NCBI GenBank assembly: GCA_964635935.1 | Contig: CAZWNN010000001.1 | Span: 1 to 48,572, forward strand | Origin: Candidatus Woesearchaeota archaeon | GTDB taxonomy: Archaea; Nanobdellota; Nanobdellia; Pacearchaeales; GW2011-AR1 | Direction: 5' to 3' | DNA length: 48,572 nt | Shown: piece after piece, positions 6,392 to 25,393 of the stretch | Numbering within the stretch: position 1 is the stretch's first letter | Layout of the letters: each line of letters starts with the position of its first letter | The notes under the pieces: generated by a model | Database searches by the model: none | What the model saw: the letters and a program-made list of their open reading frames with translations, nothing else | What the model was told of the DNA's origin: nothing | Translations under genes and position numbers: made by a program

Positions 6392-6553
6392 GTTTAGTAA
6401 AATCCACAAGACTGGATATAGGTAGATGAGATTAATATCTTTAAGCTATTGCGGAAATTTAGCTTGTCTTAATTATTATTGTGCTAAATTTCTGTTGGTT
6501 TTGGAGAGCATCACTTCCTCTAAATTATAAGGCTTGTTAAGTAATTTCTAAAG
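6392..6553 (+). repeat. Intergenic hairpin repeat, copy A (core 6446..6514)
   Basis: Core CTATTGCGGAAATTTAGC-loop-GCTAAATTTCTGTTGGTTTTGGAGAGCATCAC. Left end GTTTAGTAAAATCCAC, right end GTAATTTCTAAAG. Confidence 0.8.
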
Positions 6554-6635
6554 AAATTATTTTTTATTTGTTTCTTTTTCTAAAATCTTCATCCCAAGAA
6601 AAGATTTATAAAGCTTATAATTACAGAGCATTATA

Positions 6636-7331
6636 ATGTTTGTAGAAGATGTTCCAGAAGGAAGAATTAGGTCTGCTTTTGTACAGGATGTTCCTTTTGA
6701 TGAAGCTGTTTTGGAATTAAACGAAAACGGCTATAGAGTAATTTCTGCAAAAGAGAATTTAGCATTGCTTATTCAAGAAGGAGTAAGGTCTCACTTATTA
6801 GATACAGATGAAAGAATTGGATCAAATAGAACAAGAGAAGGCTATATTCTTTTTCCATTAGACCAAACCCAGGTAGCTTTGGTTAAAGATTCTCCTGCAT
6901 TAGCTAAAGCAGAGGATTATGCACAAACACACATCCATAATGACGCGGACGTTATAGCTGGTAGAGAATTTTATTTATCTTCAAGGGAATTAGAAAAAGT
7001 GATGAGTCAAGCTTTAATACTTCCACATACGCCCCAGGAGGCTTATAAAGTTCCTGTTCAAAGATTTAATGAAGATAAACTCACGAGATTTCTTTTTGAA
7101 GAACAAGCTGGACCTGGAGGAGATTTTTTAAAAGAAGCTGAATTTGATAGACTTGAGTTTTTTTATAGTGTGCGTTCTAGCTGTTTTCATGGAGAAAGAA
7201 AACCTTTTTTAAAACAACTATGGTTCTCTGTAGTAAAACATAAGAGGCGAGATTTTAAAACACTTTATTTAAGAGGTTGGCCAGCATTTGGTTCTGCTTT
7301 TACAAGGGTCCGTGGGATAAAAACTAATTGA
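6636..7331 (+). CDS. Hypothetical protein (orphan, flanked by two direct copies of the intergenic repeat)
   Basis: 231-aa ORF with a TTTATAAAG box about 30 nt upstream. R/E/D-rich composition unlike the K-rich core proteome. Confidence 0.5.
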   Translation: MFVEDVPEGRIRSAFVQDVPFDEAVLELNENGYRVISAKENLALLIQEGVRSHLLDTDERIGSNRTREGYILFPLDQTQVALVKDSPALAKAEDYAQTHIHNDADVIAGREFYLSSRELEKVMSQALILPHTPQEAYKVPVQRFNEDKLTRFLFEEQAGPGGDFLKEAEFDRLEFFYSVRSSCFHGERKPFLKQLWFSVVKHKRRDFKTLYLRGWPAFGSAFTRVRGIKTN

Positions 7332-7359
7332 AAATAAATAATTATTAACTCCTCTATAT

Positions 7360-7490
7360 GTTTACTTAAGCACCCTTTATCTATCTATAAATCTATTGCA
7401 GAAATTTAGCCAATAATATATAAGATAGCAAAATTTCTGTTTGCTTTGAAGAGCCTCTCTCCTAATATATTTCCAGTAATTTCTAAAAAA
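7360..7490 (+). repeat. Intergenic hairpin repeat, copy B (core 7393..7462)
   Basis: CTATTGCAGAAATTTAGCC-loop-AGCAAAATTTCTGTTTGCTTTGAAGAGC. Right end CCAGTAATTTCTAAAAAA abuts the stop of 7491..8066. Confidence 0.8.
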
Positions 7491-8066
7491 TCAATACTGC
7501 CCCTCCAAAAGAGAGTAAGGAGTCTGCTTCTTAATCACAAACCGCGAACCAATCACCCCACTAACAACAGCACTAAGAACAAAGTTATCCACAGCAGCTC
7601 TAAAAACACCCTCCACCAAAGGAATGCGCGCTTTTTCAGATACTTTTTTTAGCAGAGCATTAATTTCCAGCTGGCTCAAACTAATCTTTGTTCCCTGCAC
7701 CTGCCCAGCCCGCACAATTGTCAAAGGTTTGTCAGCACCAGGACACTCAATCGAAGTCACAGTAACATCAACAAGAAGTGGCTGCAATTTTCCATAACCT
7801 TCAGGTCTTTCTAAATAATCTATTGTTGTTGCAGGCCGAGACATCTGCAGTGCAGGACGAGGAGAAACAGGACGAGGAATCGGCCTTGCTAAAGGAGAAA
7901 TTCTCCCGCCCCCTAACAAACCCTTATTAACAACTCTTTGAGAAACCCTAGGAACAAGTTCAGCATTAACTCTTTTCTGCCCTGGTAAAAAAACTTTCCC
8001 TTTTCTAGATTGTAATACACGCATAACAATAGCACGAACTAACAAAGAATTCCCTAACTGATTCAT
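7491..8066 (-). CDS. FlaI/PilB-family secretion ATPase, N-terminal domain only (possibly a truncated gene)
   Basis: GKLQPLLVDVTVTSIECPGADKPLTIV...GSRFVIKKQTPYSLLEGQ resembles the region preceding the Walker A box of archaeal type IV pilus/archaellum ATPases. The ORF stops before any P-loop, exactly where repeat copy B begins. Confidence 0.4.
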   Translation of the reverse strand: MNQLGNSLLVRAIVMRVLQSRKGKVFLPGQKRVNAELVPRVSQRVVNKGLLGGGRISPLARPIPRPVSPRPALQMSRPATTIDYLERPEGYGKLQPLLVDVTVTSIECPGADKPLTIVRAGQVQGTKISLSQLEINALLKKVSEKARIPLVEGVFRAAVDNFVLSAVVSGVIGSRFVIKKQTPYSLLEGQY

Positions 8067-8416
8067 ATTCTCGGCAAAGGTTTTGGCCCAGTAGGCAGAG
8101 CTCTCTGCCCACCAAATTTACTCTCAAGCAAAACCAAACCCTGAGCAATTGTTTTATTCTGTTCAATCAACGTCTCTAATTTCCGAGCAACCTCCTTACC
8201 ATCAATTGCCCCATCCTCAGCAACGTTTTTCGCAGCCAACTCAAAAACCTGCAGCAGCTTCGAAATATTATCAGACAACTCCCCAAACTTCATAGACAAA
8301 TTAGTCATCGCCTTTTGCAAACCAACAAAATTCTCAATAAGCAAATCATCTCTCTGATTAGTAGTCATCCCACGCACAGGAGCAACACTAACACCAATCA
8401 CCCTCTTTCTTGCCAT
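8063..8416 (-). CDS. Hypothetical coiled-coil protein
   Basis: 117-aa ORF. Its stop overlaps the start of the downstream gene by 4 nt. Confidence 0.45.
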   Translation of the reverse strand: MARKRVIGVSVAPVRGMTTNQRDDLLIENFVGLQKAMTNLSMKFGELSDNISKLLQVFELAAKNVAEDGAIDGKEVARKLETLIEQNKTIAQGLVLLESKFGGQRALPTGPKPLPRI

Positions 8417-8453
8417 AAAATATAGAAGATAATTTACTTTATAAATTCTTCGT

Positions 8454-8580
8454 GATTAAGTAAAGCCACAAGAAGGAATAATATTTCTAATTACAGAATA
8501 TCTTAAAGATATTGCGAAAATTTTGCCAATAATCTATAAAAAGGCTAAATTTCTGTTAGCCTTGAAAGCTCACCCTCTAC
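8454..8580 (+). repeat. Intergenic hairpin repeat, copy C (core 8509..8577)
   Basis: ATATTGCGAAAATTTTGCC-loop-GGCTAAATTTCTGTTAGCCTTGAAAGC. The upstream AATAATATTTCTAATTACAGAATATCTTAAAG is nearly identical to the equivalent stretch in copy D. Confidence 0.75.
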
Positions 8581-8584
8581 TTTC

Positions 8585-8899
8585 TTAATTAAATCTTCGT
8601 GGAAAATATTCTTTTAGTATCTTAATTACCTCCAAATGGTCTGAAGTTTCTGAAATACCAATCTGGAAAGAACGTTCTGTTCCAGGCCCATGAATAGGTT
8701 CTTTAATACGGCTTTCATAATCTAAAGGTAAATAAGGCTTTATTCTTTCAAAAAAATCTGCAGCTTTTTCACTACAAATTCTTTGATCGGCATCTCGATG
8801 CCCGTCTATCTCTAAAGTCCAACTCCAATCTGTTGTTTCTAAATCCCCCTGGTCTGTGCAATGGGATGCTGCATGAATCTGTATATTTTCTTCTCTCAT
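8585..8899 (-). CDS. Hypothetical protein
   Basis: 104-aa ORF between repeat copy C and tRNA-Trp. No motif recognised. Confidence 0.4.
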   Translation of the reverse strand: MREENIQIHAASHCTDQGDLETTDWSWTLEIDGHRDADQRICSEKAADFFERIKPYLPLDYESRIKEPIHGPGTERSFQIGISETSDHLEVIKILKEYFPRRFN

Positions 8900-8982
8900 C
8901 TTAACTTCATCACAGAACTCTTAATCCCCTTGCTTCAGGTGAAAATATAGAGATTTTGGGGTTTTTAAGTCTTCCTAAAAAA

Positions 8983-9055
8983 TGGGGTCGGAGGGAATCA
9001 AACCCCCATCAAGCGGGCTGGAGCCGCCCATTCTAGGTCATTGAACTACGACCCC
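8983..9055 (-). tRNA. tRNA-Trp(CCA), no intron
   Basis: The reverse complement folds as a cloverleaf: acceptor GGGGTCG/CGACCCC, anticodon arm GGCGG-CUCCAGC-CCGCU, T arm GGGGG-UUUGAUU-CCCUC. Confidence 0.85.
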
Positions 9056-9528
9056 TTGTAGTGTGCTTCCCTATGACAGTTAGCACATAATAATATACAT
9101 TTTTTTATTTCTTTTAAAGCCTTCTGTTTTGAAAAGTTTTTTATTATTGTTGTAATGCACCCTTCTTTATCTCCTTGATTATGGTGAAACTCTAAAGCTG
9201 AGATGCACTTGTTATAACCACAAATAATACATTTTCCGCCGAGAGATTCAATTAGTTCTTTTTTCTTTTCTTTAAGTTTTTGCTTTTTTCTTTGATAAAC
9301 CTTTTTTCTATGTTTCTTGTAATAATTGTCATTTGCTTTTCTTTGCCTTTCTTTTTTCTTTTCAATGTCAAAAGGTTTTCTAGGATGAGAAACCCCTAAT
9401 CTTTCAGCTTTATTCTGAATTGATTTAATACTCCGATTTAATTTTCTTGAAATTTCTTTCAAAGGAATTCTAGTAGAATATGTTTTAGTTAAATAATCCT
9501 TCTCACTTTTAGACCATCTCTTTTTCAT
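9046..9528 (-). CDS. HNH endonuclease with an N-terminal Myb/SANT-like HTH
   Basis: CIICGYNKC...EFHHNQGDKE...LLCANCHREAH is an HNH/zinc-finger motif. N-terminal WSKSEKDYL...SIQNKAERLGV looks like an HTH. The last 10 nt overlap the 5' end of tRNA-Trp. Confidence 0.7.
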   Translation of the reverse strand: MKKRWSKSEKDYLTKTYSTRIPLKEISRKLNRSIKSIQNKAERLGVSHPRKPFDIEKKKERQRKANDNYYKKHRKKVYQRKKQKLKEKKKELIESLGGKCIICGYNKCISALEFHHNQGDKEGCITTIIKNFSKQKALKEIKKCILLCANCHREAHYKGS

Positions 9529-9591
9529 AATAAATATAATAAATGGGGATATATAAAGTTTACCTCTTGAAAAGGTTATATAGAATTATAC

Positions 9592-10275
9592 TCAACCCCT
9601 ACCCAAACTCTTAATCACATCAATCTCCCCAGTAGAAATCGCAGTCCCCTTAAACTTCAACCCATACAACAAAGCACCCAAAAGCTCCTTACTCTTTTTC
9701 AGATTAATCAACCCTTTTTTATAAGCAATATAAACCAACTCAGCAGAACGAATAAATTTAAAACCTTCAAGCTCTCGAGTATTTATTTCATTAACTTTTA
9801 TCTTCGTATGCAAACGACTAGACATAATCTTTCTTAAATTATCAGGCGCTTCACTAATCATCCGAGTTGTTCTCTCATCAATAACAATCAAACTCTCACA
9901 ATTGCAAAGCCGCGCAAAAGCAAGACAAGATGCTTCAGCCTCCTGAATCAATTTAATCTTCTCTCCCTCAGCCTTAAAAAGAGTATTAGCAATCTTAGAA
10001 ATTCTCTTTGTCTCTTTATCAATAACACTCCCAGAAACAAATTCAGAAGCAATCCTAAGAACCTTCTTATCAACCAAATCCTTAACACAAAGCGCCTCAA
10101 GTTCATACTTCTTAATCCCAAGCGGCCTATCAACAACCTCTCTCTTCACCTGAGGAGTAATCACAAACTCCCCGTCAAAATCTTTTTTCAATTTCTCAAT
10201 AACATAAAGCAGCCCGTTCATACTCAAAGATATAATCGGCCCTGCGTCAAAAATCAAAAACTTTTTCCCTTTCAT
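9592..10275 (-). CDS. PIN-like domain protein (predicted nucleic-acid binding or nuclease)
   Basis: N-terminal FLIFDAGPIISL is a PIN-like acidic motif. Overlaps the upstream HTH gene by 4 nt. Confidence 0.35.
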   Translation of the reverse strand: MKGKKFLIFDAGPIISLSMNGLLYVIEKLKKDFDGEFVITPQVKREVVDRPLGIKKYELEALCVKDLVDKKVLRIASEFVSGSVIDKETKRISKIANTLFKAEGEKIKLIQEAEASCLAFARLCNCESLIVIDERTTRMISEAPDNLRKIMSSRLHTKIKVNEINTRELEGFKFIRSAELVYIAYKKGLINLKKSKELLGALLYGLKFKGTAISTGEIDVIKSLGRG

Positions 10276-10832
10276 CTAAAAAACCCCTCAGCCATTTTAA
10301 TTCTCTTCCTCTCAGGAAGAGAAACATTTAATTTCTCCTCATGAACACGCGACTGCCCAATATAAGATGCCATATCCCAAAGCGAAACCCCAAGCAACTC
10401 CGCAACCTGCCGCGAAGACAAACCATGTTCATAAATTTTAAACGCCTTGTTAATCTGCGCTTTTTCAAAAACCTGCTTAATATAAATCGCAAGATTCTCG
10501 TCAATCTTATTCAACGAATGCCGAATATGCCCCATTGCCTCTCGAAATTTTTTCATATCTTTTTTCTCTAATGCAGAAATTGCCCCCTCCCAGTTCTTAA
10601 TTAACAATTCTCTAAACTTTTTCCATCCAGGCATCTTACGATAATGCTCCCTCTCCACAATCTTTCCAACAGAATAAACAAGCACAGCAACAATAATATT
10701 GTCAGAATCCTGTGAAATCGTAGCAGTATGAATTGTCTGGTCTGACAACTTTTTAATTTTATAAGAATCTTGCTCTGTAATTGCAGTTCTTACCTCTCGA
10801 AAAATCCGTAGTATGTTTGACACCTCTTTCAT
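10272..10832 (-). CDS. HTH-domain protein, possible regulatory partner of the PIN-like protein
   Basis: C-terminal GLSSRQVAELLGVSLWDMASYIG is a helix-turn-helix. Translationally coupled to 9592..10275. Confidence 0.4.
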   Translation of the reverse strand: MKEVSNILRIFREVRTAITEQDSYKIKKLSDQTIHTATISQDSDNIIVAVLVYSVGKIVEREHYRKMPGWKKFRELLIKNWEGAISALEKKDMKKFREAMGHIRHSLNKIDENLAIYIKQVFEKAQINKAFKIYEHGLSSRQVAELLGVSLWDMASYIGQSRVHEEKLNVSLPERKRIKMAEGFFR

Positions 10833-10882
10833 AAATAAAAAAAGAAAGGAAGTTATATAAATCTTCCTTCACTATCAATAAT

Positions 10883-11251
10883 ATGAAAATCCTACTAGAC
10901 ACAAACTTCATCCTAACATGCATAAAGGAGAAAATAGACTTCGATACCATCGCCAATGAAATATTAGATAGAAGAATTGACTGGGTCATCCCGCAAGAAG
11001 TAGAAAAGGAAATCATAGCAATATCAAAATCCCAAGGAGCAAAAAAACAACAAGCAAAAGTAGCTCTTGAATTGTTAAAAAACTTCAAACACAAAACAGT
11101 TCGTGTAAAAGATCCAAATGTAGATGTTGGAATTGCAAAATATGTTAATCAGCACAATATCATACTCGCAACCCTTGACAGAAAACTCAAATCAAGAGTA
11201 AAAGGAAAAATCCTGACTATTCGAGGAAAAAAGTCACTAGAGATTATTTAA
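10883..11251 (+). CDS. PIN-domain nuclease (Fcf1/Utp24-like)
   Basis: MKILLDTNFIL... and ...ILATLDRKLK are the conserved PIN acidic motifs. 122 aa. Confidence 0.65.
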   Translation: MKILLDTNFILTCIKEKIDFDTIANEILDRRIDWVIPQEVEKEIIAISKSQGAKKQQAKVALELLKNFKHKTVRVKDPNVDVGIAKYVNQHNIILATLDRKLKSRVKGKILTIRGKKSLEII

Positions 11252-11418
11252 TAGCAAACAATTAAGCAGTCGAACCGCCGAAGGCGAATGATTCAGATAC
11301 TAAACTTTAGCGGGGCAAAAATGTGAGAGTGAGCGAAGCTAACGGATTTTTGCAGGGTGGCGATAATTTTATAAACCTAAAATAATTACAAAAAACACCC
11401 AAAAGGAAAAAGAGTTCT

Positions 11419-11826
11419 GTGATATGTAAAATGTTAGATAACGACCAAATATACAGGTTAGCACAAGCAGCAGTAATAACTATTCCTTCAGCAGTTGCTG
11501 TGGTTGGGAGTGTGTGGGCTGTTGCAAGGCATGCTTATCTTGCCGCAAAATCAAGGAATGAGACTGCTCCAGAAAGAAGCAGAGCAAAAATTGCAGCAAT
11601 GCAAGCCAGAGAGCAAATAGTAAATTCTCAAAATTATCAATCGAGATTAGCCGAAAAAGAAAGAAGATTAAAGATTTTTCTAGACAGGAGGACTCAATTA
11701 AATTCAGACTTATTAAAACTGCCAAAAGAACAAAGACCTTACTATAATATTGGAGATTATCTTGATGAGGTTGTTGGAAGTATCTCTGATTTCGAAGACC
11801 TATTAGGTAAAGAACTCAGATTATAA
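11419..11826 (+). CDS. Hypothetical membrane-anchored coiled-coil protein
   Basis: ORF with a GTG start (alternative ATG at 11431), one hydrophobic segment and then a charged helix. Confidence 0.4.
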   Translation: MICKMLDNDQIYRLAQAAVITIPSAVAVVGSVWAVARHAYLAAKSRNETAPERSRAKIAAMQAREQIVNSQNYQSRLAEKERRLKIFLDRRTQLNSDLLKLPKEQRPYYNIGDYLDEVVGSISDFEDLLGKELRL

Positions 11827-11876
11827 TTTTTTAATAACTTAGTAACCTTTAAAAACCAAAAATATCTTTTAAAAAC

Positions 11877-12491
11877 ATGTTCTATCTAATCGATGTTGAA
11901 GATTACGTAAGAGTAGAGCCAAAGTTGTTCGGACTAGCAACAGCTGACGCAGTCAAACAGCAACTAATCGAGACCTACTCAGACTTCCAAGACAAAGAAC
12001 TAGGAGTAGTTATCGACGTACTAGAAGTCCTAGATGTAGAAGAAGGAATCATAATCCCTGGAGACGGGGCAGCCTACTACCGCTCAAACTTCAAATTAGT
12101 TGTATTCAAACCAGAACTCCAAGAGTTAATCTACGGAACAATAGACGAGATAACCAACTTTGGAGCATTCATTGACATGGGGGTAATGCGCGGAATGATT
12201 CACATATCACAAACTATGGATGATTATGTCACCTTTTCAAAAACAGGCGCACTAACAGGCAAAGATGGCAAAAAATCCCTAAACACCGGAGACCAGTGCC
12301 TAGCAAGAATCGTAGCAATCTCTTACAGGGGCGAAGACCCAAAAATCGGACTAACAATGCGACAACCAGGCTTAGGAAAGATAGAGTGGGTAAAACAAGA
12401 AAAAGACAAGCAAAAAAAAGACGCAGCTAAAATCGCTAGGGCTCAGGAAAAAGAAACTGTTAAGGGAAGTAAGGGGGGTAAGAAGAAATAA
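11877..12491 (+). CDS. rpoE: DNA-directed RNA polymerase subunit E' (Rpo7) with S1 domain
   Basis: The N-terminal MFYLIDVEDYVRVEPKLFG pattern and the GAFIDMG S1 motif. Followed directly by spt4, as in the conserved archaeal operon. Confidence 0.85.
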   Translation: MFYLIDVEDYVRVEPKLFGLATADAVKQQLIETYSDFQDKELGVVIDVLEVLDVEEGIIIPGDGAAYYRSNFKLVVFKPELQELIYGTIDEITNFGAFIDMGVMRGMIHISQTMDDYVTFSKTGALTGKDGKKSLNTGDQCLARIVAISYRGEDPKIGLTMRQPGLGKIEWVKQEKDKQKKDAAKIARAQEKETVKGSKGGKKK

Positions 12492-12682
12492 TGGCAAAAA
12501 AAGAAAAAGCATGTCTAAGTTGCAAAAAAATACACGAAGGAGATAAGTGCCCAAATTGCGGAGAGAGCACCTCCAGCGAAACCTTCAAGGGCCGAGTCTA
12601 CATCTTCAACACAGAAGATTCCCAAGTCGCAAAAAACATGAAGATAAATAAAAAAGGAGAGTTTGCAATTAAGACCAAATGA
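12491..12682 (+). CDS. spt4: Transcription elongation factor Spt4 (RpoE'')
   Basis: 63 aa with a CxxC...CPxCG zinc ribbon. Lies in the conserved rpoE-spt4-S24e-S27ae context. Confidence 0.8.
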   Translation: MAKKEKACLSCKKIHEGDKCPNCGESTSSETFKGRVYIFNTEDSQVAKNMKINKKGEFAIKTK

Positions 12683-13650: not shown

Positions 13651-13838
13651 TTCTTAAGTTTATGAATTTACAGAGTTTATAAAATCTGAGGAAAAGAAAA
13701 AATAATATTCCTAATTACACAATATCTTAAAGCTATTGCGAAAATTTGCACAATAATTTTTAAAAATAGTGCAAATTTTTGTTTGTGCTGAAGAGCATCA
13801 CTCCTAACCTATCAAAAATCTTTCAGTTATTACTAAAT
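13651..13838 (+). repeat. Intergenic hairpin repeat, copy D (core 13733..13804)
   Basis: CTATTGCGAAAATTTGCAC-loop-GTGCAAATTTTTGTTTGTGCTGAAGAGCATCAC. Right end CTTTCAGTTATTACTAAA. Confidence 0.8.
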
Positions 13839-13919
13839 TTATTATTCAAAAAAAGCATAACCACCCAATAGACAACCCTCAACCCAAACCTTTATAAAAG
13901 AAAATCCTATCACCTATTT

Positions 13920-14114
13920 ATGGAAGAAACAGAAGAGGAAACTCCAGAAGCTCCAGAAGCTGAAGAAGCTGAAGAGCCAGTAGAAGAAGCTGAAGAACCT
14001 GCAGCAGAAGCGCCTGCAGAGGAATCAGAAGAAGCTGAAGAAACTTCAGATGAAGAAGCTCCTGCAGAAGAACCTGCAGCAGAAGAGACTTCCGAAGATG
14101 AAGACGAAGATTAA
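13920..14114 (+). CDS. Highly acidic low-complexity protein (E/A/P-rich)
   Basis: 64-aa ORF with a CCTTTATAAAAG box about 30 nt upstream, followed by hairpins and a T-tract. Flanked by inverted copies D and F of the repeat. Confidence 0.45.
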   Translation: MEETEEETPEAPEAEEAEEPVEEAEEPAAEAPAEESEEAEETSDEEAPAEEPAAEETSEDEDED

Positions 14115-14159
14115 GCAGCTTATTCTATCTACTATTAATTTTTTTATTTTGAATAGCTG

Positions 14160-14210: not shown

Positions 14211-14373
14211 TCCTTTAGAAATTACCCAATATAAATCTATAATCAAGAATAAAGACTCTCTGCAAAACTAACAGAAATTTATCCATTTTATATATTATTG
14301 GATAAATCTCCGCAATAGCCTAAAGTTAATTAACAACTAATAAATCTTCATATTCTTCAATCATTACTAAAAA
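14211..14373 (-). repeat. Intergenic hairpin repeat, copy F (core 14253..14319, inverted)
   Basis: The reverse complement reads CTATTGCGGAGATTTATCC-loop-GGATAAATTTCTGTTAGTTTTGCAGAGAG. Confidence 0.75.
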
Positions 14374-14525: not shown

Positions 14526-14654
14526 GGTGATTGTAGTTTAGTGGCAGAACATACGGTTGTGGCGAGCAAGGTCGCTTGTCGACCTTTTGTCCTTTGCTTT
14601 GACAAGGGACGTTGCGAGATCCGTAAAGCCCGAGTTCGATTCTCGGCTTTCACC
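14526..14654 (+). tRNA. tRNA-His(GUG) with encoded G-1 and a 57-nt intron
   Basis: G-1 plus acceptor GUGAUUG/CUUUCAC and C73. D arm GUUU-AGUGGCA-GAAC. Anticodon stem UACGG/CCGUA with loop UUGUGG, then an intron after position 37. T arm CCGAG-UUCGAUU-CUCGG. Confidence 0.75.
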
Positions 14655-17015: not shown

Positions 17016-17401
17016 GAGGATTTTTGGAAGAGGAAGTTAATAAACATTATGAATAAAAAAGAAGTGAATAAGGCACATAAATAATTCGCAATTAATTTGC
17101 GGTGTTTTCTTTTTTGCCTCACTTCTTTCTTTTTACCAGAGATTATGAAACCCTGGAAGAGGCTCATAAGGCGATAAAAATTAGTATGCCCTATTTGCCT
17201 CTTCTGGGGAAAAAGAGGTGATAATATATAGAGCACTCTTTTATTTATAAACCTTTCGGTTTTGTTGTAACTTATCAGTTACACTTCAAAGTTACAGCAT
17301 CCTGCTATTACTTGTGAGTATAATGCGAAGGTTTTAACCTTCGTCCGAGCGTTTAGGTCTGAACAATTATTTTTATCCTCAGACCTGGGCGCGAGTTATT
17401 G

Positions 17402-17477
17402 TAGTTTTCTTTTGAAAGCCCAATTTTCTTTTTCTGCCCTAATAGGGTACACCTTTGGTGCAAAAGAAAAGAGGCTA
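17402..17477. repeat. 76-nt dispersed repeat, copy 2 (abuts the 3' end of tRNA-Glu)
   Basis: Same sequence as 1820..1895 with 5 substitutions. Contains the imperfect stem TTTTCTTTT / AAAAGAAAA. Confidence 0.8.
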
Positions 17478-17608
17478 TGCTCCGTTCGGGATTCGAACCC
17501 GAGTCACTGCCTTTCTTCGTAAAGTTCTTTGAACTTCTAGAAACTTTCTTTCAAGAAAGTTTGTATCCCGTGAAAGGGCAGTATGCTTGGCCTCTACACT
17601 AACGGAGC
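17478..17608 (-). tRNA. tRNA-Glu(UUC) with a 58-nt intron
   Basis: Reverse complement reads GCUCCGU-UA-GUGUAGAGGCCAAGCAU. Anticodon stem CUGCC/GGCAG with loop CUUUCA, then an intron after position 37. T arm UCGGG-UUCGAAU-CCCGA. Confidence 0.8.
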
Positions 17609-17708
17609 CTACAATCCGAAACCTAAAATTCCTTTTAAACTTTTTCATCACTGTCAGTTCCTAAAAATGAAACAAAAAACCTATAAACCCCCTTTTCCCC
17701 CAAAATGC

Positions 17709-18668: not shown

Positions 18669-18707
18669 TCCCAAACCAAAAACCACAACCCAATTCTAAA
18701 AATAACA

Positions 18708-19190
18708 CTAAAACCCAAAACACCCCCTATGCTTCAACATCCCAGAATACTTCCACAATAAAGCCCACTTACTCTTCTCACTATGATACCCCAACTCCCC
18801 ATTATTTCGAGCTCGCCTAATCAGCTCACAAAGATTTCCCCCCTTAAATTCAGAAATATATTTAGAACTAAGTGTAAGAAAAATATCTGGCTCACCTTTT
18901 TGCAAAACCCCCTTTCGCCCAATTAAAAAATCCTCATGCCAAACAGCAGCCCCGCTCACCAGACTAAAAAACCTCAACGAAATAACCCCTTTCCGTGGCA
19001 TATCATTTAACATCTCACTTGAATTTAAAATCTCCACAACATCCCCATGCTCATTATAAGAAAGCGGAACAATCTGAATTTGCTGAGTTGTAGAAACCGC
19101 TCTCCCCGTTAAAGAAACCTGACTAACTCCAACTAAAATAATCCCAACTACAACAAGAAAAACCAACCCCGGCAGCATCTCTTTTTTCAT
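18708..19190 (-). CDS. Hypothetical secreted or membrane-anchored protein
   Basis: 160 aa with an N-terminal hydrophobic signal-like segment. Confidence 0.45.
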   Translation of the reverse strand: MKKEMLPGLVFLVVVGIILVGVSQVSLTGRAVSTTQQIQIVPLSYNEHGDVVEILNSSEMLNDMPRKGVISLRFFSLVSGAAVWHEDFLIGRKGVLQKGEPDIFLTLSSKYISEFKGGNLCELIRRARNNGELGYHSEKSKWALLWKYSGMLKHRGCFGF

Positions 19191-19203
19191 CGTTAATTTG
19201 AAA

Positions 19204-19324
19204 TGAGCCCGACCGGATTTGAACCGGCGACCCCTGCCTTTCTTAGCATCCTATGAAAGATTTGCTCCTAGCGGAACAAGCTCATATAAGAGCAGTGCTC
19301 TAAACCTGGCTGAGCTACGGGCTC
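19204..19324 (-). tRNA. tRNA-Ile(UAU) with a 45-nt intron
   Basis: Reverse complement reads GAGCCCG-UA-GCUC-AGCCAGGUUUA-GAGC-A-CUGCU-CUUAUA, then the intron, then A-GGCAG-GGGUC-GCCGG-UUCAAAU-CCGGU-CGGGCUC-A. Positions 34-36 read UAU. Confidence 0.7.
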
Positions 19325-19390
19325 GTAATCTTCTATGGAATTCTAATATTTAAAAGTATATGTTTTTGTTTGTTTTTTATAAACTAATAT

Positions 19391-19517
19391 CCAACGCCCT
19401 GTAAAACCAATAGAAATCTAGCCCAAGAATAAAATATGACAAGGATAAATTTCCGCAAGGACTATAAAAAATTAATTAATACCCATTAACAAAATTATTC
19501 AGAGAATTACTAAATCC
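19391..19517 (-). repeat. Intergenic hairpin repeat, copy G (core 19391..19460, inverted, more diverged)
   Basis: The reverse complement reads CCTTGCGGAAATTTATCC-loop-GGCTAGATTTCTATTGGTTTTACAGGGC. ATTACTAAA lies at 19507-19515. Confidence 0.65.
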
Positions 19518-19552
19518 ATTAATATTAAAAAACCAACTTTCTTATCAAATTC

Positions 19553-20737
19553 ATGCTAATAGGCCTAGTAGGAAAACCCTCCTGTGGAAAAAGTACATTC
19601 TTCAAAGCAGCAACTCTGGCAAATGTAGAAATCTCCTCTCGTCCATTTACCACAATAAAACCCAACCACGGAATAGGTTATGTACGCATAGACTGCATTG
19701 ACAAAGAATTAAACACCCAGTGCCAGCCACGAACAGGCTACTGCACCAATCACCAGAGATTTGTCCCAGTTGAACTAATGGATGTCGCAGGACTTGTAAA
19801 AGGAGCAAGTGAAGGCAGAGGCCTTGGAAACCAGTTTTTAGATGATTTAAGACAAGCAGACGTGTTTATTCATATTGTAGATGCATCTGGAACAACAGGT
19901 GAAGAAGGCAAAGAAACAACTAATTACGACCCAACCCAAGATATTGAAATGCTTGAAAATGAACTTGACACCTGGTATGTAAATATTCTAAAAAAAGCAT
20001 GGAAAACCTTTGCAAGACAAGCTCAAATGGAAAAGCAAAAATTTGAACAAGCAGTTGCAAAACAATTTTCAGGTTTAAAAGTAAAAGAAGAAGATGTAAA
20101 GTCTATAGTTCTCAAACTAGGGTTTAACCCAGAAAAACCAGCAGAGTGGACAGATGAGCAAATAGAAAAATTTGCAAATTCCCTCCGCCACCTGACAAAA
20201 CCCATGATAATTGCAGCAAATAAAATTGACAAACCAGATGCAAAACAAAACCTTGGAAAAATTAAAAAAGCCTATCCAGAACTTTTAATTATTCCGTGTT
20301 CTGCGGATTCAGAATTAGCACTAAGAGAAGCATCAAAGGCAGAAATGATTGACTACATTCCAGGAGAATCAGACTTCGAAATTAACGAAGACAAAGTAAA
20401 TCAAAAACAAAAACAAGCCTTAGAAACAATAAAGCAAAATGTTTTAAGACCATACAGCTCAACAGGAATTCAGCAAGTCCTCAACACAGCAGTATTCGAC
20501 CTATTAAAATACATTGCAATCTTTCCAGCAGGTGCAAAACTAACAGACAGCAAAGGCAACATCCTCCCAGATTGCTTTCTCCTCCCCCCAAACACCACCG
20601 CCCTCGACTTTGCTTATCACCTTCACACAGATATTGGTGACAGCTTTGTAAAAGCAATTGATATCCGGACAAAAAAACCCGTCGGCAAGGATCACCACCT
20701 AAAACACCGCGACGGCATAGAAATACTGACGAAATAA
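19553..20737 (+). CDS. OBG-family GTPase/ATPase (YchF/DRG-like) with a C-terminal TGS domain
   Basis: P-loop GLVGKPSCGKST, followed by DVAGLV and AANKID motifs. TGS-like C-terminus. Confidence 0.8.
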   Translation: MLIGLVGKPSCGKSTFFKAATLANVEISSRPFTTIKPNHGIGYVRIDCIDKELNTQCQPRTGYCTNHQRFVPVELMDVAGLVKGASEGRGLGNQFLDDLRQADVFIHIVDASGTTGEEGKETTNYDPTQDIEMLENELDTWYVNILKKAWKTFARQAQMEKQKFEQAVAKQFSGLKVKEEDVKSIVLKLGFNPEKPAEWTDEQIEKFANSLRHLTKPMIIAANKIDKPDAKQNLGKIKKAYPELLIIPCSADSELALREASKAEMIDYIPGESDFEINEDKVNQKQKQALETIKQNVLRPYSSTGIQQVLNTAVFDLLKYIAIFPAGAKLTDSKGNILPDCFLLPPNTTALDFAYHLHTDIGDSFVKAIDIRTKKPVGKDHHLKHRDGIEILTK

Positions 20738-20738
20738 A

Positions 20739-20897
20739 GTTTAGTAATTGCTGAAAGATTTTTATATATTGTGAATGATGCTCTACAAAACCAACAGGAA
20801 TCCAACACAATAATAAATAAAACTTGTTGGATTTCCGCAAAGACTATAAAGAATTAAATCCTACAATTAATAATTAAATCATTTAGTTTTTACTAAA
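20739..20897 (-). repeat. Intergenic hairpin repeat, copy H (core 20774..20843, inverted)
   Basis: The reverse complement reads CTTTGCGGAAATCCAACA-loop-TGTTGGATTCCTGTTGGTTTTGTAGAGCATCA. Ends are GTTTAGTAATTGCTGAAAG and TTTTTACTAAA. Confidence 0.8.
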
Positions 20898-20905
20898 TTA
20901 CACAA

Positions 20906-21127
20906 ATGAAAATCTCCATAAAAGCAAAGCCAAATTCAAGAGAGAGTAAGATAGAAAAAATCTCAAAAAAAGAATTCACAGCACATCTAAAAGCCCCTGC
21001 AAAGGACAACAAAGCAAACATCGAACTAATTAAACTCCTAGCAAAACATTTCAAAACATCTTCAAAAAGCATAAAAATAAAAAACCCAACATCTAAGAAT
21101 AAAATAGTGGAGATAAAATGCCAATAA
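20906..21127 (+). CDS. DUF167 (YggU-like) protein
   Basis: KAKPNSRESKI...LKAPAKDNKANIELIKLLAKHFK matches the DUF167 pattern. Confidence 0.6.
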   Translation: MKISIKAKPNSRESKIEKISKKEFTAHLKAPAKDNKANIELIKLLAKHFKTSSKSIKIKNPTSKNKIVEIKCQ

Positions 21128-21513
21128 CCTACCACCCCGCCCCAGAACTAAAAAAACAAGCAGAAGAAATAATCCAGACATTAAACTGGGCCCACATAGA
21201 CATAGAAAACATCTCCTTCATCCGAAGCCATGGAAGTAAGTCCAGAGGAACAATCGCCCGCTGCCACGCACTTGGAAAAGCAATGCAGCTCGGGATGAAC
21301 AGACTAAAATCCTTCTACCTAATAGAAATGATATCAAAAAGATTTGACAAACTCAGCCAAACAGAAAAAACAAAAGTAATTATTCACGAACTAATGCACA
21401 TTCCAAAATCCTTCGGCGGCGGCTTCAAACACCACAATATTGTAACAGATAAAAAAGTCGACACAGTCTTCGAACATTATATTAATTTAAAAGAAAAACA
21501 AAATGGAATTTAA
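21118..21513 (+). CDS. Predicted zinc metallopeptidase (HExxH)
   Basis: VIIHELMHIPKSFGGGFKHH contains HExxH plus downstream His residues. Confidence 0.5.
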   Translation: MPITYHPAPELKKQAEEIIQTLNWAHIDIENISFIRSHGSKSRGTIARCHALGKAMQLGMNRLKSFYLIEMISKRFDKLSQTEKTKVIIHELMHIPKSFGGGFKHHNIVTDKKVDTVFEHYINLKEKQNGI

Positions 21514-21808
21514 ATACAAAATAGGAACAAAAGAAAAAACAATCACAGCCAAACCTCTCACTACAATCCTCCAAAAAACCAGGGGCTTAATGTTCAAATC
21601 CAAATCACCTACGCTTCTCTTCATCTTCAACAAAGAAAAAACCCTCACAATCCACTCTATCTTTTGCAAACCCTTCATCGCAATCTGGCTTGACAAAAAG
21701 AAAAAAGCAACAAAGATTGAAAAAGTTACAAACTGGAGATTTCACATTTCAGGACGGGGAAAGTATCTTTTAGAAATCCCTCTTACCCCCCTTCGACAAC
21801 CACTTTAA
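21503..21808 (+). CDS. DUF192-like protein
   Basis: TRGLMFKSK...LLFIF......FIAIWLD resembles the DUF192 (COG1430) core. Confidence 0.45.
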   Translation: MEFKYKIGTKEKTITAKPLTTILQKTRGLMFKSKSPTLLFIFNKEKTLTIHSIFCKPFIAIWLDKKKKATKIEKVTNWRFHISGRGKYLLEIPLTPLRQPL

Positions 21809-21905
21809 AATAGCAAATCCCCCGTCGACAAACAACGAAACATTTAAATACAAATCTTTTCTTCTAACTATATTACTGAAAGGAGGGTTATAAAAAATAA
21901 TTAAT

Positions 21906-22043
21906 ATGGGAAAAATTATTGTTAAGGGTGTTGTTAAAAGACAGAAGGGTTATCTTTACTATGTAGACGGAAAAGGAAATGTTTGCGAAGCAAAGATGGC
22001 GCGAGGCGGACGAAAAAAGAAAGCAAAGAAAAAGAAAAAATAA
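21906..22043 (+). CDS. Small basic protein (45 aa, not in the ORF track)
   Basis: ATG preceded by AGGAGGG at -12. Sequence MGKIIVKGVVKRQKGYLYYVDGKGNVCEAKMARGGRKKKAKKKKK. Followed by a strong hairpin plus T6. Confidence 0.5.
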   Translation: MGKIIVKGVVKRQKGYLYYVDGKGNVCEAKMARGGRKKKAKKKKK

Positions 22044-22068
22044 ATTCATGATTATTTAATCATATTCA

Positions 22069-22107
22069 ATGAGCTTTCTTCAGAGGGAAGGGGAAAGCTC
22101 ATTTTTT
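22069..22107 (+). terminator. Hairpin plus T-tract terminator
   Basis: ATGAGCTTTC (22069-22078) pairs with GAAAGCTCAT (22093-22102), followed by TTTTTT. Confidence 0.55.
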
Positions 22108-22181
22108 AATTTTATTTTAAAACAATTTTTATTAATTACCCAATAAGAACAATTTATAAATTCAATCTTATTTCTGTTTTC

Positions 22182-23165
22182 ATGTTACTCGCAATAGAAT
22201 CAACAGCCCACACCTTTGGAATAGCAATCCTAGATATGCAAGGAAAAATCCTCTGCAATATAAAAGAAACCTACACAACAGAGCAAGGAGGAATAATTCC
22301 AATTCAAGCTGCAGCCCACCACACAAAAATCGCAGAACAACTTTATCAAAAAGCACTCCAACATTCCAACATTCAAGAAAACCAAATAGGGGTAATAGCC
22401 TTCTCAAACGCCCCAGGACTAGCTCCATGTCTAATTGAAGGAATGAAATTTGCAAAACAAAAATCAAAACAACTTAATCTTCCACTAATCCCAGTCAACC
22501 ATTGCATTGCTCACTTAGAAATCGGAGAAACAACAGGTGCAAAAGACCCTGTCTTGCTCTATGCATCAGGAGCAAACACTCAAATCATTGCATATGAAGC
22601 AGATAAGTACAGAATATTTGGTGAAACTCTTGACCTTGGAGTTGGAAACTTTATTGATACTTTTGCAAGATTAGCCGGAATTGGATTTCCAGGAGGACCT
22701 GAAATAGAAAAACTCGCAGCAAAAGCAAACAAAGACGAGCTAATAGGGCTCCCCTACTCAATAAAAGGCATGGATGTTTCATTTTCAGGAATACAAACAA
22801 AACTTAGAAACATGCTGGAAAAGGAACAACACCCAATTGAACAACTAGCCTTCAGCATGCAAGAAACAGTTTTCGCAATGTTAGTAGAAGCAGCAGAAAG
22901 AGCCCTAGCTCACACAGGAAAAAAAGAACTTCTCCTCGGAGGCGGAGTAGCATGCAACTCCCGTCTACAAGAGATGTTCCAGATAATGTGCAAAGAACGA
23001 GGAGCTAAGTTCTTTTGCCCAGAGAGAAGTCTATTAGTAGATAACGCAGCAATGATTGGTTATCTTGGATTAAAAATGCACAAATCAGGACTTAAATTCA
23101 ACACAGATGAAATTGATATTGCTCCGAGAGAAAGAACTGATGATGTTGAGGTGAGCTGGAAATGA
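22182..23165 (+). CDS. kae1: tRNA N6-adenosine threonylcarbamoyltransferase Kae1
   Basis: LAIESTAHTFGIAI, HCIAHLE and GGGVACNSRLQEM are Kae1/TsaD signatures. Confidence 0.85.
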   Translation: MLLAIESTAHTFGIAILDMQGKILCNIKETYTTEQGGIIPIQAAAHHTKIAEQLYQKALQHSNIQENQIGVIAFSNAPGLAPCLIEGMKFAKQKSKQLNLPLIPVNHCIAHLEIGETTGAKDPVLLYASGANTQIIAYEADKYRIFGETLDLGVGNFIDTFARLAGIGFPGGPEIEKLAAKANKDELIGLPYSIKGMDVSFSGIQTKLRNMLEKEQHPIEQLAFSMQETVFAMLVEAAERALAHTGKKELLLGGGVACNSRLQEMFQIMCKERGAKFFCPERSLLVDNAAMIGYLGLKMHKSGLKFNTDEIDIAPRERTDDVEVSWK

Positions 23166-23220
23166 AATATATATTTTAAATAACAACTATCTTTAAATAG
23201 ACTGATTATAAATTAAAAAC

Positions 23221-23613
23221 ATGTTAACTGAGCTTGAAAGGGAGCTTGAAAGGTTTCGTGAAGGAGAATTAGCACAAGGAGATAAAACAGTAAAACTACT
23301 TAATGTTTCTTATCATCCACCTCCAAGCCTTCCTCTTATACAAAGACCAATACAAATGTTTTCTCACGTAGATGTCGAAGGAACTTTGGAATTAAAAAGA
23401 CAAGGCCCCCGCATCCTCGCAACCCCAACAATAACTAGTGTAGGCCACAGTATGGATGATAAAGAAAAAGTTAGAAGAACTATCGAAGCAGCTTTTGATA
23501 CATCTATTGAGCAGGCAAGACATTATCATCCTGGACAGAGGGTATCTTTGTATTCTCCGGATTGGTCTTTTCATTGCTCACTTGAAGAAGAAAACAACCC
23601 TAAGTCAGATTAG
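23221..23613 (+). CDS. Hypothetical protein
   Basis: 130-aa ORF. No motif recognised. Atypical codon usage. Confidence 0.4.
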   Translation: MLTELERELERFREGELAQGDKTVKLLNVSYHPPPSLPLIQRPIQMFSHVDVEGTLELKRQGPRILATPTITSVGHSMDDKEKVRRTIEAAFDTSIEQARHYHPGQRVSLYSPDWSFHCSLEEENNPKSD

Positions 23614-23808
23614 GCATTACTAAATCTCCTGTGTCCGCTAGGACACTCCGATAATGTTCAACCGAAGGTTGACTAGTTCAACTTGTTGCGGCGGAGCGGC
23701 ACAAAAACATTTATAAAGCAAAATCACACCCCAATAATATCCAATGACTAATTATTAGGAGGACAAAAAGTTTTCTTAATATAGTCAAATTAAATCCAAA
23801 ACAAAAAC

Positions 23809-24102
23809 ATGGCAGAAAATAAAATTTACGACATTGTAGAAACCGCAGCAAAAACAGGCAAGATAGACAAAGGCATCAACGAAGTTACAAAGGCGATAGA
23901 GCGAGGAGTTGCAAAACTCGTCGTAGTTGCAGCAGATGTTGAGCCAAAAGAACTGACACAACACATCGAACCTCTGTGCAAAGAAAAAGAAATAAAGTTC
24001 GAACAAGTAGATTCCAAAGAAAAACTCGGCATCTCAGCAAGAATCAATGTGAAGTGCAGTGCAGTAGCAGTCATCGAGCTGGGTGATGCTAAACTAGATT
24101 AA
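23809..24102 (+). CDS. rpl7ae: Ribosomal protein L7Ae (short form)
   Basis: GINEVTKAIERGVAKLVVVAADVEPKEL...LCKEKEIKF...SKEKLG is the L7Ae/K-turn-binding signature. Confidence 0.8.
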   Translation: MAENKIYDIVETAAKTGKIDKGINEVTKAIERGVAKLVVVAADVEPKELTQHIEPLCKEKEIKFEQVDSKEKLGISARINVKCSAVAVIELGDAKLD

Positions 24103-24115
24103 CTAAATAAATAAA

Positions 24116-24451
24116 ATGGCAACGTCCGACGATTTTCAAAAACTAGATATAAAGGTAGGAAAGATTATAGAAGTAGAAGATTTCCCCGAAGCTAAAAATC
24201 CCTCATACAAACTTAAAATTGATTTTGGTGAAGAAATCGGAATAAAAAAATCTTCAGCACAATTAGTAGATAATTATTCCAAAGAAGATCTAAAAAACCG
24301 ATTCATTCTTGCAGTTGTTAATTTTCCACCAAAACAAATAGGCCCCGTTCTTTCAGAAGTTCTTGTCTTGGGCATACCAAAAGATAATTTAAATGATGTT
24401 ATCTTAATCCAACCAGAAAGAGAAGTTCCTTTAGGGGGGAGATTATACTAA
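24116..24451 (+). CDS. tRNA-binding domain protein (CsaA/Trbp111-like)
   Basis: LDIKVGKIIEVEDFPEAKNPSYKLKIDFGEEIG is an OB-fold tRNA-binding domain. Confidence 0.75.
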   Translation: MATSDDFQKLDIKVGKIIEVEDFPEAKNPSYKLKIDFGEEIGIKKSSAQLVDNYSKEDLKNRFILAVVNFPPKQIGPVLSEVLVLGIPKDNLNDVILIQPEREVPLGGRLY

Positions 24452-24452
24452 C

Positions 24453-24749
24453 ATGGCAAAAACACAAAAAATCAAAGAGCAGAAAACAACAGCAACAACA
24501 AAAGGCTCAGACAAGCTCACAGAAGAAGGAGCAGTTCCAGCAGTTGTTGATTATATTGTGGGCAGAACAGGAACAAGAGGCGAACTAACCCAAGTAAAGT
24601 GCAGAGTTCTACAGGGAAAAAACCAGGGAAAGCAAATGAGGAGAAATGTCCGAGGACCAGTCAGAAAACGAGATGTTTTAATGTTAAGAGAAACAGAAAT
24701 CGAAGCAAGAAAATTAAGAAGTAAAATTTCAAAGGGGGCTTTTAGTTAA
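24453..24749 (+). CDS. rps28e: Ribosomal protein S28e with an N-terminal extension
   Basis: GRTGTRGELTQVKCRVL...RNVRGPVRKRDVLMLRETEIEARKLR matches S28e. Confidence 0.85.
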   Translation: MAKTQKIKEQKTTATTKGSDKLTEEGAVPAVVDYIVGRTGTRGELTQVKCRVLQGKNQGKQMRRNVRGPVRKRDVLMLRETEIEARKLRSKISKGAFS

Positions 24750-24750
24750 G

Positions 24751-24987
24751 ATGGGAAGTAAAGGTACGAGAGTTGTTTATGATCAGAGCACAGGGGGAAG
24801 TAAAGTTTATAGGGGGCAAGGAGGAGCTTACAAATCAGATAATAATGGTCCGCCCGGAGCAGTCTGGGGAACAGATATTGAAAGGAGTAGGAGAGAAGAT
24901 AAAATCCAAAAAACCTGGAGAGGAGAATTATCTCAATTAGTCTATTTAATGGCTTGTTTACTCCATTTAGGAGGAGGAAAAAAATAA
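24751..24987 (+). CDS. Doubtful ORF in a purine-rich spacer between S28e and L24e
   Basis: 78-aa ORF, G-rich, with no recognisable motif. It may instead be non-coding. Confidence 0.2.
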   Translation: MGSKGTRVVYDQSTGGSKVYRGQGGAYKSDNNGPPGAVWGTDIERSRREDKIQKTWRGELSQLVYLMACLLHLGGGKK

Positions 24988-24988
24988 A

Positions 24989-25192
24989 ATGCCACGTTGC
25001 ACATTTTGCAAACAAGATTATGAATTTCCAAAAGGCGTAACAGTAGTTCAAAAAGATGGCACACCTTTTCACTTCTGCTCTAGCAAGTGCAGAAAAAACA
25101 AAGAAATGGGCCGAGATAATCGAAAGGTGAAGTGGGTTAAGAAAGGAAAAAATGTTAAAGAAAAACAAAAAAACAAAAGAGATAGATTTTGA
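24989..25192 (+). CDS. rpl24e: Ribosomal protein L24e
   Basis: MPRCTFCKQDYEFPKGVTVVQKDGTPFHFCSSKCRKN is the L24e zinc-ribbon signature. Confidence 0.85.
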   Translation: MPRCTFCKQDYEFPKGVTVVQKDGTPFHFCSSKCRKNKEMGRDNRKVKWVKKGKNVKEKQKNKRDRF

Positions 25193-25250
25193 TTTATTAA
25201 TTCAGTTCATTCAAAGTCTTAAAGATATAAAAGAAGGAAGAGTAAGAAGA

Positions 25251-25393
25251 GTTAAGTAATTTTATCCACCACTTAATTTTCATTAAGTTATTGCGAAAAT
25301 TTAGCCAAAAGTTTATATGATGGGCTAAATTTTTGTTAGTCCTGCAGAGCATAATTCATTAGAATATAAAGAGCCTTTCAGCAATTACTAAAA
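25251..25393 (+). repeat. Intergenic hairpin repeat, copy E (core 25288..25356)
   Basis: TTATTGCGAAAATTTAGCC-loop-GGCTAAATTTTTGTTAGTCCTGCAGAGCATAA. Ends are GTTAAGTAAT and CTTTCAGCAATTACTAAAA. Confidence 0.8.

Follow-up and report, generated by a model that had tools for sequence, protein, structure and literature searches.

The 48,572-nt contig CAZWNN010000001.1 of a Candidatus Woesearchaeota archaeon (assembly GCA_964635935.1), hereafter called the window, carries in its intergenic spacers a real, well-delimited and previously uncharacterised small palindromic repeat; in this lineage such elements have hitherto only been counted automatically. We consider it probable, though far from certain, that the repeat represents an old non-coding family of about 160 bp, which resembles MITEs (miniature inverted-repeat transposable elements) as well as REPs (repetitive extragenic palindromes), is specific to the Woesearchaeota/Pacearchaeota-type (Nanobdellota) clade of DPANN archaea, and has a core under selection.

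We built a covariance model (R1) of the family and searched both strands of the window with it, with the filters disabled. The eight intergenic copies of the original prediction were borne out by the sequence and by the model, at the same sites and on the same strands, with scores of 64-94 bits and E-values of 1e-12 to 1e-19; the runner-up match (21.6 bits) lies within an open reading frame (ORF). The repeat has a defined polarity, as the given strand far outscores its complement in each window copy (e.g. 94 vs 29 bits). A ninth left end that had been noted at the window edge was confirmed as well. The copies are, along the window:

Copy A, 6392..6553, + strand: full length; hairpin core 6449-6496; model match 6423-6518, 94.1 bits.
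Copy B, 7360..7490, + strand: hairpin core 7396-7441; model match 7370-7463, 74.4 bits.
Copy C, 8454..8580, + strand: hairpin core 8512-8557; model match 8486-8579, 66.3 bits.
Copy D, 13659..13838, + strand: full length; hairpin core 13736-13783; model match 13710-13805, 78.1 bits.
Copy F, 14211..14373, - strand: full length; hairpin core 14270-14315; model match 14248-14341, 80.2 bits.
Copy G, 19378..19517, - strand: hairpin core 19409-19458; loop inverted; model match 19387-19484, 64.6 bits.
Copy H, 20738..20897, - strand: full length; hairpin core 20793-20840; model match 20771-20866, 82.8 bits.
Copy E, 25251..25393, + strand: full length; hairpin core 25291-25337; model match 25265-25359, 82.1 bits.
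Ninth left end, 48546..48572, + strand: AAAGTTTAGTAATTATCC, fits the left-end consensus; the rest is cut off by the contig end.

The units in the window are about 130-190 bp each, contain no consistent ORF and share only 48-68% pairwise identity over their full length. They occupy eight of the 12 spacers of at least about 160 nt that lie between 6 and 26 kb. In copy A the loop is in the inverted ('R') orientation and the predicted RNA fold reaches -22.5 kcal/mol (z -2.6). Copy B has a degenerate left end, adjoins with its right end the stop of the ORF 7491..8066(-), and carries an A for the G at one wobble position, which gives an A-U pair. Two stem mismatches are found in copy C, and its right half is truncated at the ORF 8585..8899(-). 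The left end of copy D is ambiguous (13651, 13659 or 13675); its distal stem is GCAC/GTGC and its RNA fold has a z of -3.5. Copy G, with a short right part that lacks a clear terminal motif, occupies the slot between a tRNA promoter and the promoter of the YchF-GTPase gene. Copy H has the distal stem CCAACA/TGTTGG, an inverted loop, and orthologues in the related contigs L102/L103 and L101.

A typical family copy is 157-181 bp long. It opens with a left terminal motif, (AAAG)TTTAGTAAT, frequently lengthened to TnCTGAAAG, and continues through about 25 variable bases to a 5' box (YTTWWAG-YYWTT) of two subtypes, TTAATTTTTTATAGTCT or ATATCTTAAAGCTA. The central hairpin of 12-16 bp, with the foot YYWTT-GCGG / CTGTT, is made up of a 5' arm (TT-GCGGAAATTT, then 2-6 variable paired bases), an AT-rich loop of 13-21 nt and a complementary 3' arm that ends in AAATTTCTGT-T. 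It is followed by a 3' box, GTTnGnTTTGnAGAGC or in fuller form nGnTTTGnAGAGC(A/G)TC, by about 25 variable bases in which a T-run often comes last, and by the right terminal motif (CTTTCAGnA)ATTACTAAA. Conservation in the family ends at the two terminal motifs, which keep a fixed spacing and are one motif used twice in inverted orientation, TTTAGTAAT(TnCTGAAAG). They are imperfect, with at least 7 of 9 matches at both ends in 31 of 53 copies. The MITE-like inverted ends (TTTAGTAAT...ATTACTAAA) described earlier for the window are clear in copies A, D, E, F and H, and copies B, C and G have them in degenerate or truncated form.

The sole part of the unit that behaves as a helix is the central hairpin. 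In an alignment fitted to the model, with stem arms free of gaps, 98.4% of the 876 cells of the hairpin were standard pairs, vs 88.6% in shuffles, and the covariation score was 0.281 vs 0.091, a level that none of the 500 shuffles reached. When one arm was slid by 1-3 columns, at most 58% of the cells paired. This agrees with the original prediction, according to which the arms differ between copies and stay complementary. The distal arms quoted there (AGC/GCT, GCAC/GTGC, AGCC/GGCT, ATCC/GGAT and CCAACA/TGTTGG) could all be read directly in the sequence, as could the wobble arrangement of CGG/CGA opposite CTG/TTG. Copies outside the search pattern show compensatory changes also in the otherwise constant part of the stem, where TTT/AAA is replaced by CCA/TGG, CCC/GGG or TCC/GGA. 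Mutual information picks out no covarying positions other than the distal stem pairs and those of the two-state loop.

Other helices within the unit were considered and rejected. Pairing of the terminal motifs end to end involves 67.5% of the cells and leaves a G/C position unpaired in 29 of 55 copies; the unit ends are two copies of a motif that vary independently, not a helix. Folding copies A, D, F and H singly predicts an outer helix in which the 5' box pairs with the 3' box, but only 66% of its cells pair, with almost no compensation; for a pairing between a stem arm and the post-hairpin GTTnGnnnTG, mutual information showed no signal.

The original prediction had taken the wobble arrangement as a hint of a transcribed structured RNA rather than a purely DNA-level palindrome. 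At the base of the stem two positions have G opposite T, in 71 and 72 of the 73 distinct copies. This wobble pair exists on the 'forward' strand only, and the rare one-sided changes still pair there (GC once, AU once, UG twice). Forward RNA folds also beat the reverse ones in six of the eight window copies (mean z about -2.0 vs -1.2). The hairpins folded as single-stranded DNA were of equal stability on both strands and, with the two fixed wobbles set aside, forward-strand G.U and A.C occurred in 5 vs 4 cells, i.e. with no excess. Because of these last two results the fixed wobbles may be merely a conserved sequence difference between the feet (TTGCGG vs CTGTT). The step to a transcribed RNA is therefore unsupported, and it is further weakened by the inversion of the loop (42 of 70 copies), by the non-covarying ends and by the Rfam results: the Rfam search proposed together with the prediction was run (Rfam 15), and in the window only four tRNAs exceeded the gathering thresholds and no family matched the repeat, while a permissive scan of copies D and F gave chance hairpin matches only. 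An RNA role of the repeat is possible.

The loop, with the consensus CC-AATAATAKATAAGAT-GG, is found in two orientations. Among the 70 classifiable copies it is as written in 28 and reverse-complemented in 42; a further five were unclear. Loop and distal stem flip together, and their orientation is independent of the 5'-box subtype (Fisher p 0.46). Because of this independence the inversion would seem to have occurred many times, or else interiors may be swapped between copies. The window also holds, at 1817-1895 (-) and 17399-17477 (-), two 92% identical copies of a second repeat (about 80 nt), which is found nested in the loops of two different main-repeat copies (L056/L065, at L056 2839-2943, and L015/L048, at L015 1213-1317). 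The junctions are identical in both hosts and the orientation is opposite with respect to the host's asymmetric base; the whole interior inverts even with a 76-nt nested insert. In the strain L098 (99.6% identical) the loop of copy G holds a 16-nt tandem duplication (L098 210-225 vs window 19429-19444).

These loop flips point to inversion or conversion across the arms at the DNA level, and such events would also produce the apparent covariation. Template switching or recombination over the inverted arms would invert the spacer and copy one arm onto the other, and, to judge by what is established for quasipalindromes, this copying would by itself leave the distal stem complementary yet different between copies.

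The second repeat has a hairpin of its own (AGCCTCTTTTCTTTT...AAAAGAAAAATTAGGCT; RNA fold z -2.1). One of its window copies begins at the stop codon of an ABC-permease-like ORF and the other adjoins the 3' end of an intron-containing tRNA.

Beyond the window, an exact-pattern scan of species-representative genomes gave one true copy, in a Woesearchaeota metagenome-assembled genome (MAG). A pattern scan of metagenomes returned 94 contigs, with about 56 distinct matches that have complementary distal arms and family-like flanks; the remaining matches were unrelated chance matches. On those contigs the model R1 found additional copies that the exact pattern had missed, and the window, the metagenome contigs and the syntenic relatives together hold 75 model matches, 73 of them distinct. 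Viral contigs gave two chance pattern matches and no model match. In tandem contexts the repeat is oriented with the genes in 11 cases and against them in 17, in line with the earlier observation that it has no fixed orientation relative to neighbouring genes, and a mild excess was seen at convergent over divergent spacers (14 vs 6).

Near-identical strains (at least 99.6%) showed no gain or loss of copies, and occupancy differs among relatives at 76-87% identity. The 87% relative L101 is syntenic over 16 kb; it lacks copies F, G and E, has H, and carries an extra truncated copy (L101 10950) where the window has only about 10 nt. L104 (76% relative) has nothing in the slot of copy G and no copy at all in 11 kb, and in L102 (87% relative) unrelated DNA fills that slot. 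Truncated copies are C, G and L101 10950. L040 and L088 have copies that follow orthologous genes but point in opposite directions. A BLAST comparison of 100 loci, all against all, and the contigs of syntenic relatives gave such coarse presence/absence only and no nucleotide-exact empty site.

Several of the occupied or vacant sites have features of their own. The window site of the extra L101 copy (21780-21835) carries an imperfect 17-nt direct repeat, CCCCCTTCGACAACCAC / CCCCCGTCGACAAACAAC, about 20 nt apart, which may be a footprint or a coincidence. The DNA in the copy G slot of L102 (2730-2930) is a GC-rich insert of about 200 nt with a TTAAGTAAT-like motif. At 23614-23700, between two ORFs, the window has about 85 nt of higher GC content, in place of which L094 has a copy of the main repeat; it has no Rfam match and a fold z of only about -1, and may be a small RNA or a remnant.

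Copy H has orthologues in L102/L103 and L101, which share its site and orientation in the window. The three agree without exception in the TAGTCTTTGCGGAAAT block, in the ATTTCTGTT arm and in TTTAGTAA, and all else has diverged. The distal stems CCAACA/TGTTGG, TTGCAC/GTGCAA and CTCGCA/TGCGAG are different and all paired. This one locus shows constraint on the core in place, beyond copying of a master element, and the compensatory pairing implies that something selects for the hairpin.

Taken together, these results are best explained by the old MITE/REP-like family under selection proposed above. Because occupancy is patchy, copies lie in both orientations, some are truncated and the terminal motifs are inverted, we infer that the units have spread, presumably by a trans-acting enzyme encoded elsewhere; candidates would be a DDE transposase that recognises the terminal motifs or a Y1/HUH enzyme that acts on the single-stranded hairpin. 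The complementary stems and the flipped loops would have been generated in DNA, probably by intrastrand template switching, or by recombination or conversion that involves either the two inverted arms or different copies. At each locus, selection would then preserve the stem base, the 5' box and the terminal motif, which implies some use of the unit to the host or to its own persistence. Possibly, the core binds a protein, or forms a hairpin or cruciform in single-stranded DNA or in a transcript.

The repeat resembles MITEs in being small, non-coding, multi-copy and dispersed, and in its (imperfect) terminal inverted repeats. In an automated MITE-Tracker census, a Woesearchaeal genome with 105 MITEs/Mb is listed as one of the most MITE-dense in archaea (PMC11602168, 2024), a figure that may or may not cover the present repeat. 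Target-site duplications and a matching insertion sequence (IS), which had been named as the marks of an ordinary MITE, were not found, and as neither a target-site duplication nor a partner transposase was seen, the repeat is not established as a full member of the MITE class. The ten ORFs beside copies A-C contained no transposase by Pfam, and the window as a whole showed no autonomous partner with matching ends. Neither GTAG nor CGTC, the tags of REPs, occurs at the hairpin foot on either strand. The single central hairpin, the inverted termini and the lack of TnpA/TnpB set the unit apart from IS200/IS605-derived elements (PATE, omega-RNA ends), and the covariation expected of a structured RNA is found in the central hairpin only. 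A preprint (10.64898/2026.05.13.725050) reports that, in 256 Nanobdellota proteomes, K07491, the REP-associated tyrosine transposase, is the only transposase orthologue group (KO) with strict hits.

Several observations weigh against a spreading, MITE-like family. No target-site duplication recurs in the flanks of the 31 copies with well-defined ends, where a 2-nt TA duplication within TTTA|G...C|TAAA could escape such a search in AT-rich DNA. Clustering of the 261 ORFs in 239 kb of element-bearing contigs gave no transposase and no multi-copy protein family, and metagenome assemblies may drop IS copies; as weaker evidence, tblastn of the window and the same 239 kb with approximate IS608 TnpA and E. 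coli RAYT queries gave no Y1-like ORF. To these are added the missing nucleotide-exact empty site and the low identity of the window copies (48-68%), which gives no sign of recent transposition. Conservation is strongest internally rather than at the termini, which is unusual for a purely selfish MITE. Finally, 'correction' hardly ever occurs at the two basal G.T/G.U positions, and neutral homogenising alone would not predict such near-invariant wobbles.

Alternatively, the unit could encode a small structured RNA family, or an RNA module within transcripts, read from the 'forward' strand with the hairpin and its two G.U pairs as the functional part, e.g. as a site of protein binding or processing. 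The 5' box or the left motif would then be an archaeal TATA box, and the T-run that precedes the right end would provide a terminator. We regard this as unlikely. In its favour, the wobbles are fixed in 71-72 of 73 copies with the rare changes keeping forward pairing, forward folds are the more stable ones in most window copies, and the core is kept in orthologous copies. The 5' box (TTTATAGTC / TCTTAAAGC) is also similar to promoters of window genes, e.g. CTTAATATAGTC before the L7Ae gene and CCTTTATAAA elsewhere, and T5-6 stands directly before the right end in many metagenomic copies. However, T-runs are weak in the window copies, and a TATA box at the 5' box would, with the usual 25-nt spacing, put the start inside the loop and yield an RNA without the hairpin. 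An RNA would likewise be hard to reconcile with a conserved loop that is reverse-complemented in 60% of the copies and tolerates a 76-nt insert, with outer and end-to-end helices that are 66% and 67.5% paired without compensation, with the absence of a G.U excess over A.C beyond the fixed positions, with the lack of an Rfam match and with patchy occupancy in close relatives. It is also unlikely, in our view, that the unit is more than a fossil transposon, namely a functional module that the host maintains and that is special to this DPANN clade; such a module could be a strand-specific RNA or single-stranded DNA hairpin bound by a dedicated protein, or a 'flip-flop' cassette, in which recombination between the stem arms would reverse a loop interior similar to a B recognition element (BRE) and TATA box. 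If it were true, the copies in most larger spacers would form a layer of regulation across the whole genome of an organism for which very few regulators are known.

No part of the unit is under tighter constraint than the hairpin, whose base is asymmetric; these features would also fit a single-stranded DNA element of the REP/REPIN type or derived from IS200/IS605, mobilised or maintained by a Y1 (HUH) tyrosine transposase that recognises the imperfect hairpin on one strand. An enzyme acting on the hairpin would account for selected complementarity without RNA, and K07491 is the sole transposase KO reported in the phylum (10.64898/2026.05.13.725050). This origin nevertheless appears quite improbable, as there is no GTAG/CGTC tag beside the stem and the approximate queries gave no Y1-like ORF in the window or the 239 kb of related contigs, and as the ends of REP, REPIN and IS200/IS605 do not have inverted terminal motifs at about 57 nt from the hairpin. 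The orientation series of the window copies (+ + + + - - - +), with no change in the trend of GC skew, also misfits a simple lagging-strand rule. Least probable of all, in our judgement, is a regulatory or architectural DNA site of the host, be it a flippable BRE/TATA-loop promoter cassette, a terminator or insulator, or a protein-bound cruciform. Conservation of the loop (AATAAT-ATATAAGA) whichever way it points is what recognition of double-stranded DNA would lead one to expect, and the loop is loosely BRE + TATA-like, which would put a start 23-25 nt downstream, at the conserved nAGAGC box; conservation of the core at an orthologous locus and the mild excess in convergent spacers are in line with such a role. 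Loop direction relative to tandem neighbours is, however, flat (15 agree, 12 disagree), as is the orientation of the element (11 agree, 17 disagree), many loops have a G in the putative TATA box and differ from the promoters upstream of window genes, and 11 kb of the related genome L104 are free of the element. To our knowledge, the spacer between the arms is moreover too short for known invertases.

The same flat orientation statistics (15 vs 12; 11 vs 17) led us to reject the hairpin and a U-rich tail as a terminator of the upstream gene, and the loop or the 5' box as a promoter of the neighbouring gene. An integron attC array was dismissed on account of the mixed orientations between housekeeping genes and tRNAs and the absence of an integrase. 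Origin recognition boxes (ORB) of a replication origin, attC sites, CRISPR, C/D-box and H/ACA were, judging from the sequence, discarded for wrong spacing or distribution, mixed orientation, and lack of box motifs or a pocket.

The window is archaeal and AT-rich (30-39% G+C) and contains four tRNA genes, genes for ribosomal proteins and Kae1, and a gyrase with an intein in GyrA. The homologues of its YchF GTPase come from MAGs labelled Nanoarchaeota, Pacearchaeota or Woesearchaeota. Introns of about 50-60 nt are present in three of the four tRNA genes, at 14527-14654 (+), 17478-17608 (-) and 19204-19324 (-), and these three were found by Rfam and missed by ARAGORN. The GyrA ORF (31322-35134 (+), 1270 aa) has an intein-like insert that starts with CVSGDSL and ends with ISHN|T and includes homing-endonuclease-like sequence; the syntenic region of L101 contains two LAGLIDADG ORFs. 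A 286-nt repeat with 68-74% identity (36694-36979, 38880-39165 and 47756-48041) corresponds to an N-terminal signal peptide and Hint-like domain common to three paralogous minus-strand ORFs of 314, 451 and 372 aa. Between copies D and F, degenerate periodic repeats of 9-15 nt at 13946-14104 encode the acidic Glu/Ala/Pro-rich tail of the ORF 13920..14114. A perfect 14-bp hairpin followed by a T-run is located at 22068-22105 (+), after a 45-aa lysine-rich ORF (RNA fold z -5.1), and an orthologous hairpin, with compensatory differences, is found at about 11340-11380 in L101. This suggests that the lineage has bacterial-style hairpin terminators.

The genomes of DPANN archaea are tiny and gene-dense, yet this 160-bp unit is found in two thirds of the larger spacers of the window and would, if the rest resembles the window, make up a few percent of the genome. 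At an orthologous locus its core is kept over about 13% protein divergence, with the hairpin held paired by compensatory changes. This locus-level conservation, the compensatory changes in place and the recurrent inversion of the interior are the features most worth attention. The repeat offers a handle on the biology of mobile DNA in a phylum with almost no detected transposases, and the natural series of loop inversions is useful for studies of hairpin-mediated rearrangement. It is also a practical marker, because contigs break at such copies. If the core binds a protein or is transcribed, the repeat would be among the first lineage-specific regulatory elements for these uncultured archaea.

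Prokaryotic MITEs, including archaeal ones, are similar to the present repeat in being short, non-coding, multi-copy and intergenic, with inverted termini, both orientations, truncations and variable occupancy. The repeat differs from them in that no target-site duplication or partner transposase was found, in its age (48-68% identity) and in being best conserved at an internal, covarying hairpin. The Correia elements of Neisseria and the enterobacterial ERIC/IRU elements are imperfect palindromes of about 100-160 bp, intergenic, better conserved than decay would lead one to expect and of debated origin, which can fold when transcribed. They fold end to end, whereas the present repeat maintains only a central stem of 12-16 bp, has non-covarying ends and resides in a DPANN archaeon. 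We know of no description of recurrent interior flipping for either of these families. In the way it works, the present repeat is like Correia- or ERIC-type units and like MITEs; a general review gives the background (PMC3184786).

REPs and REPINs, associated with RAYT proteins (Y1 transposases), are tagged by GTAG/CGTC (PMC3733652). With these the present repeat has in common a selected DNA hairpin with an asymmetric base, a high intergenic copy number and, according to the preprint, an association of the phylum with the Y1 family as the only one reported. It is unlike them in lacking GTAG/CGTC, in being AT-rich rather than GC-rich, and in having extra flanking boxes and inverted termini and no RAYT gene nearby. 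The flip/flop terminal hairpins of parvoviruses and poxviruses, and the inversion of quasipalindrome spacers by template switching, give two isomers in which the sequence flanked by the arms is inverted. The present hairpin is internal to a chromosomal repeat and does not form the end of a replicon, and a comparison of copies is what suggests that an analogous process may act on it.

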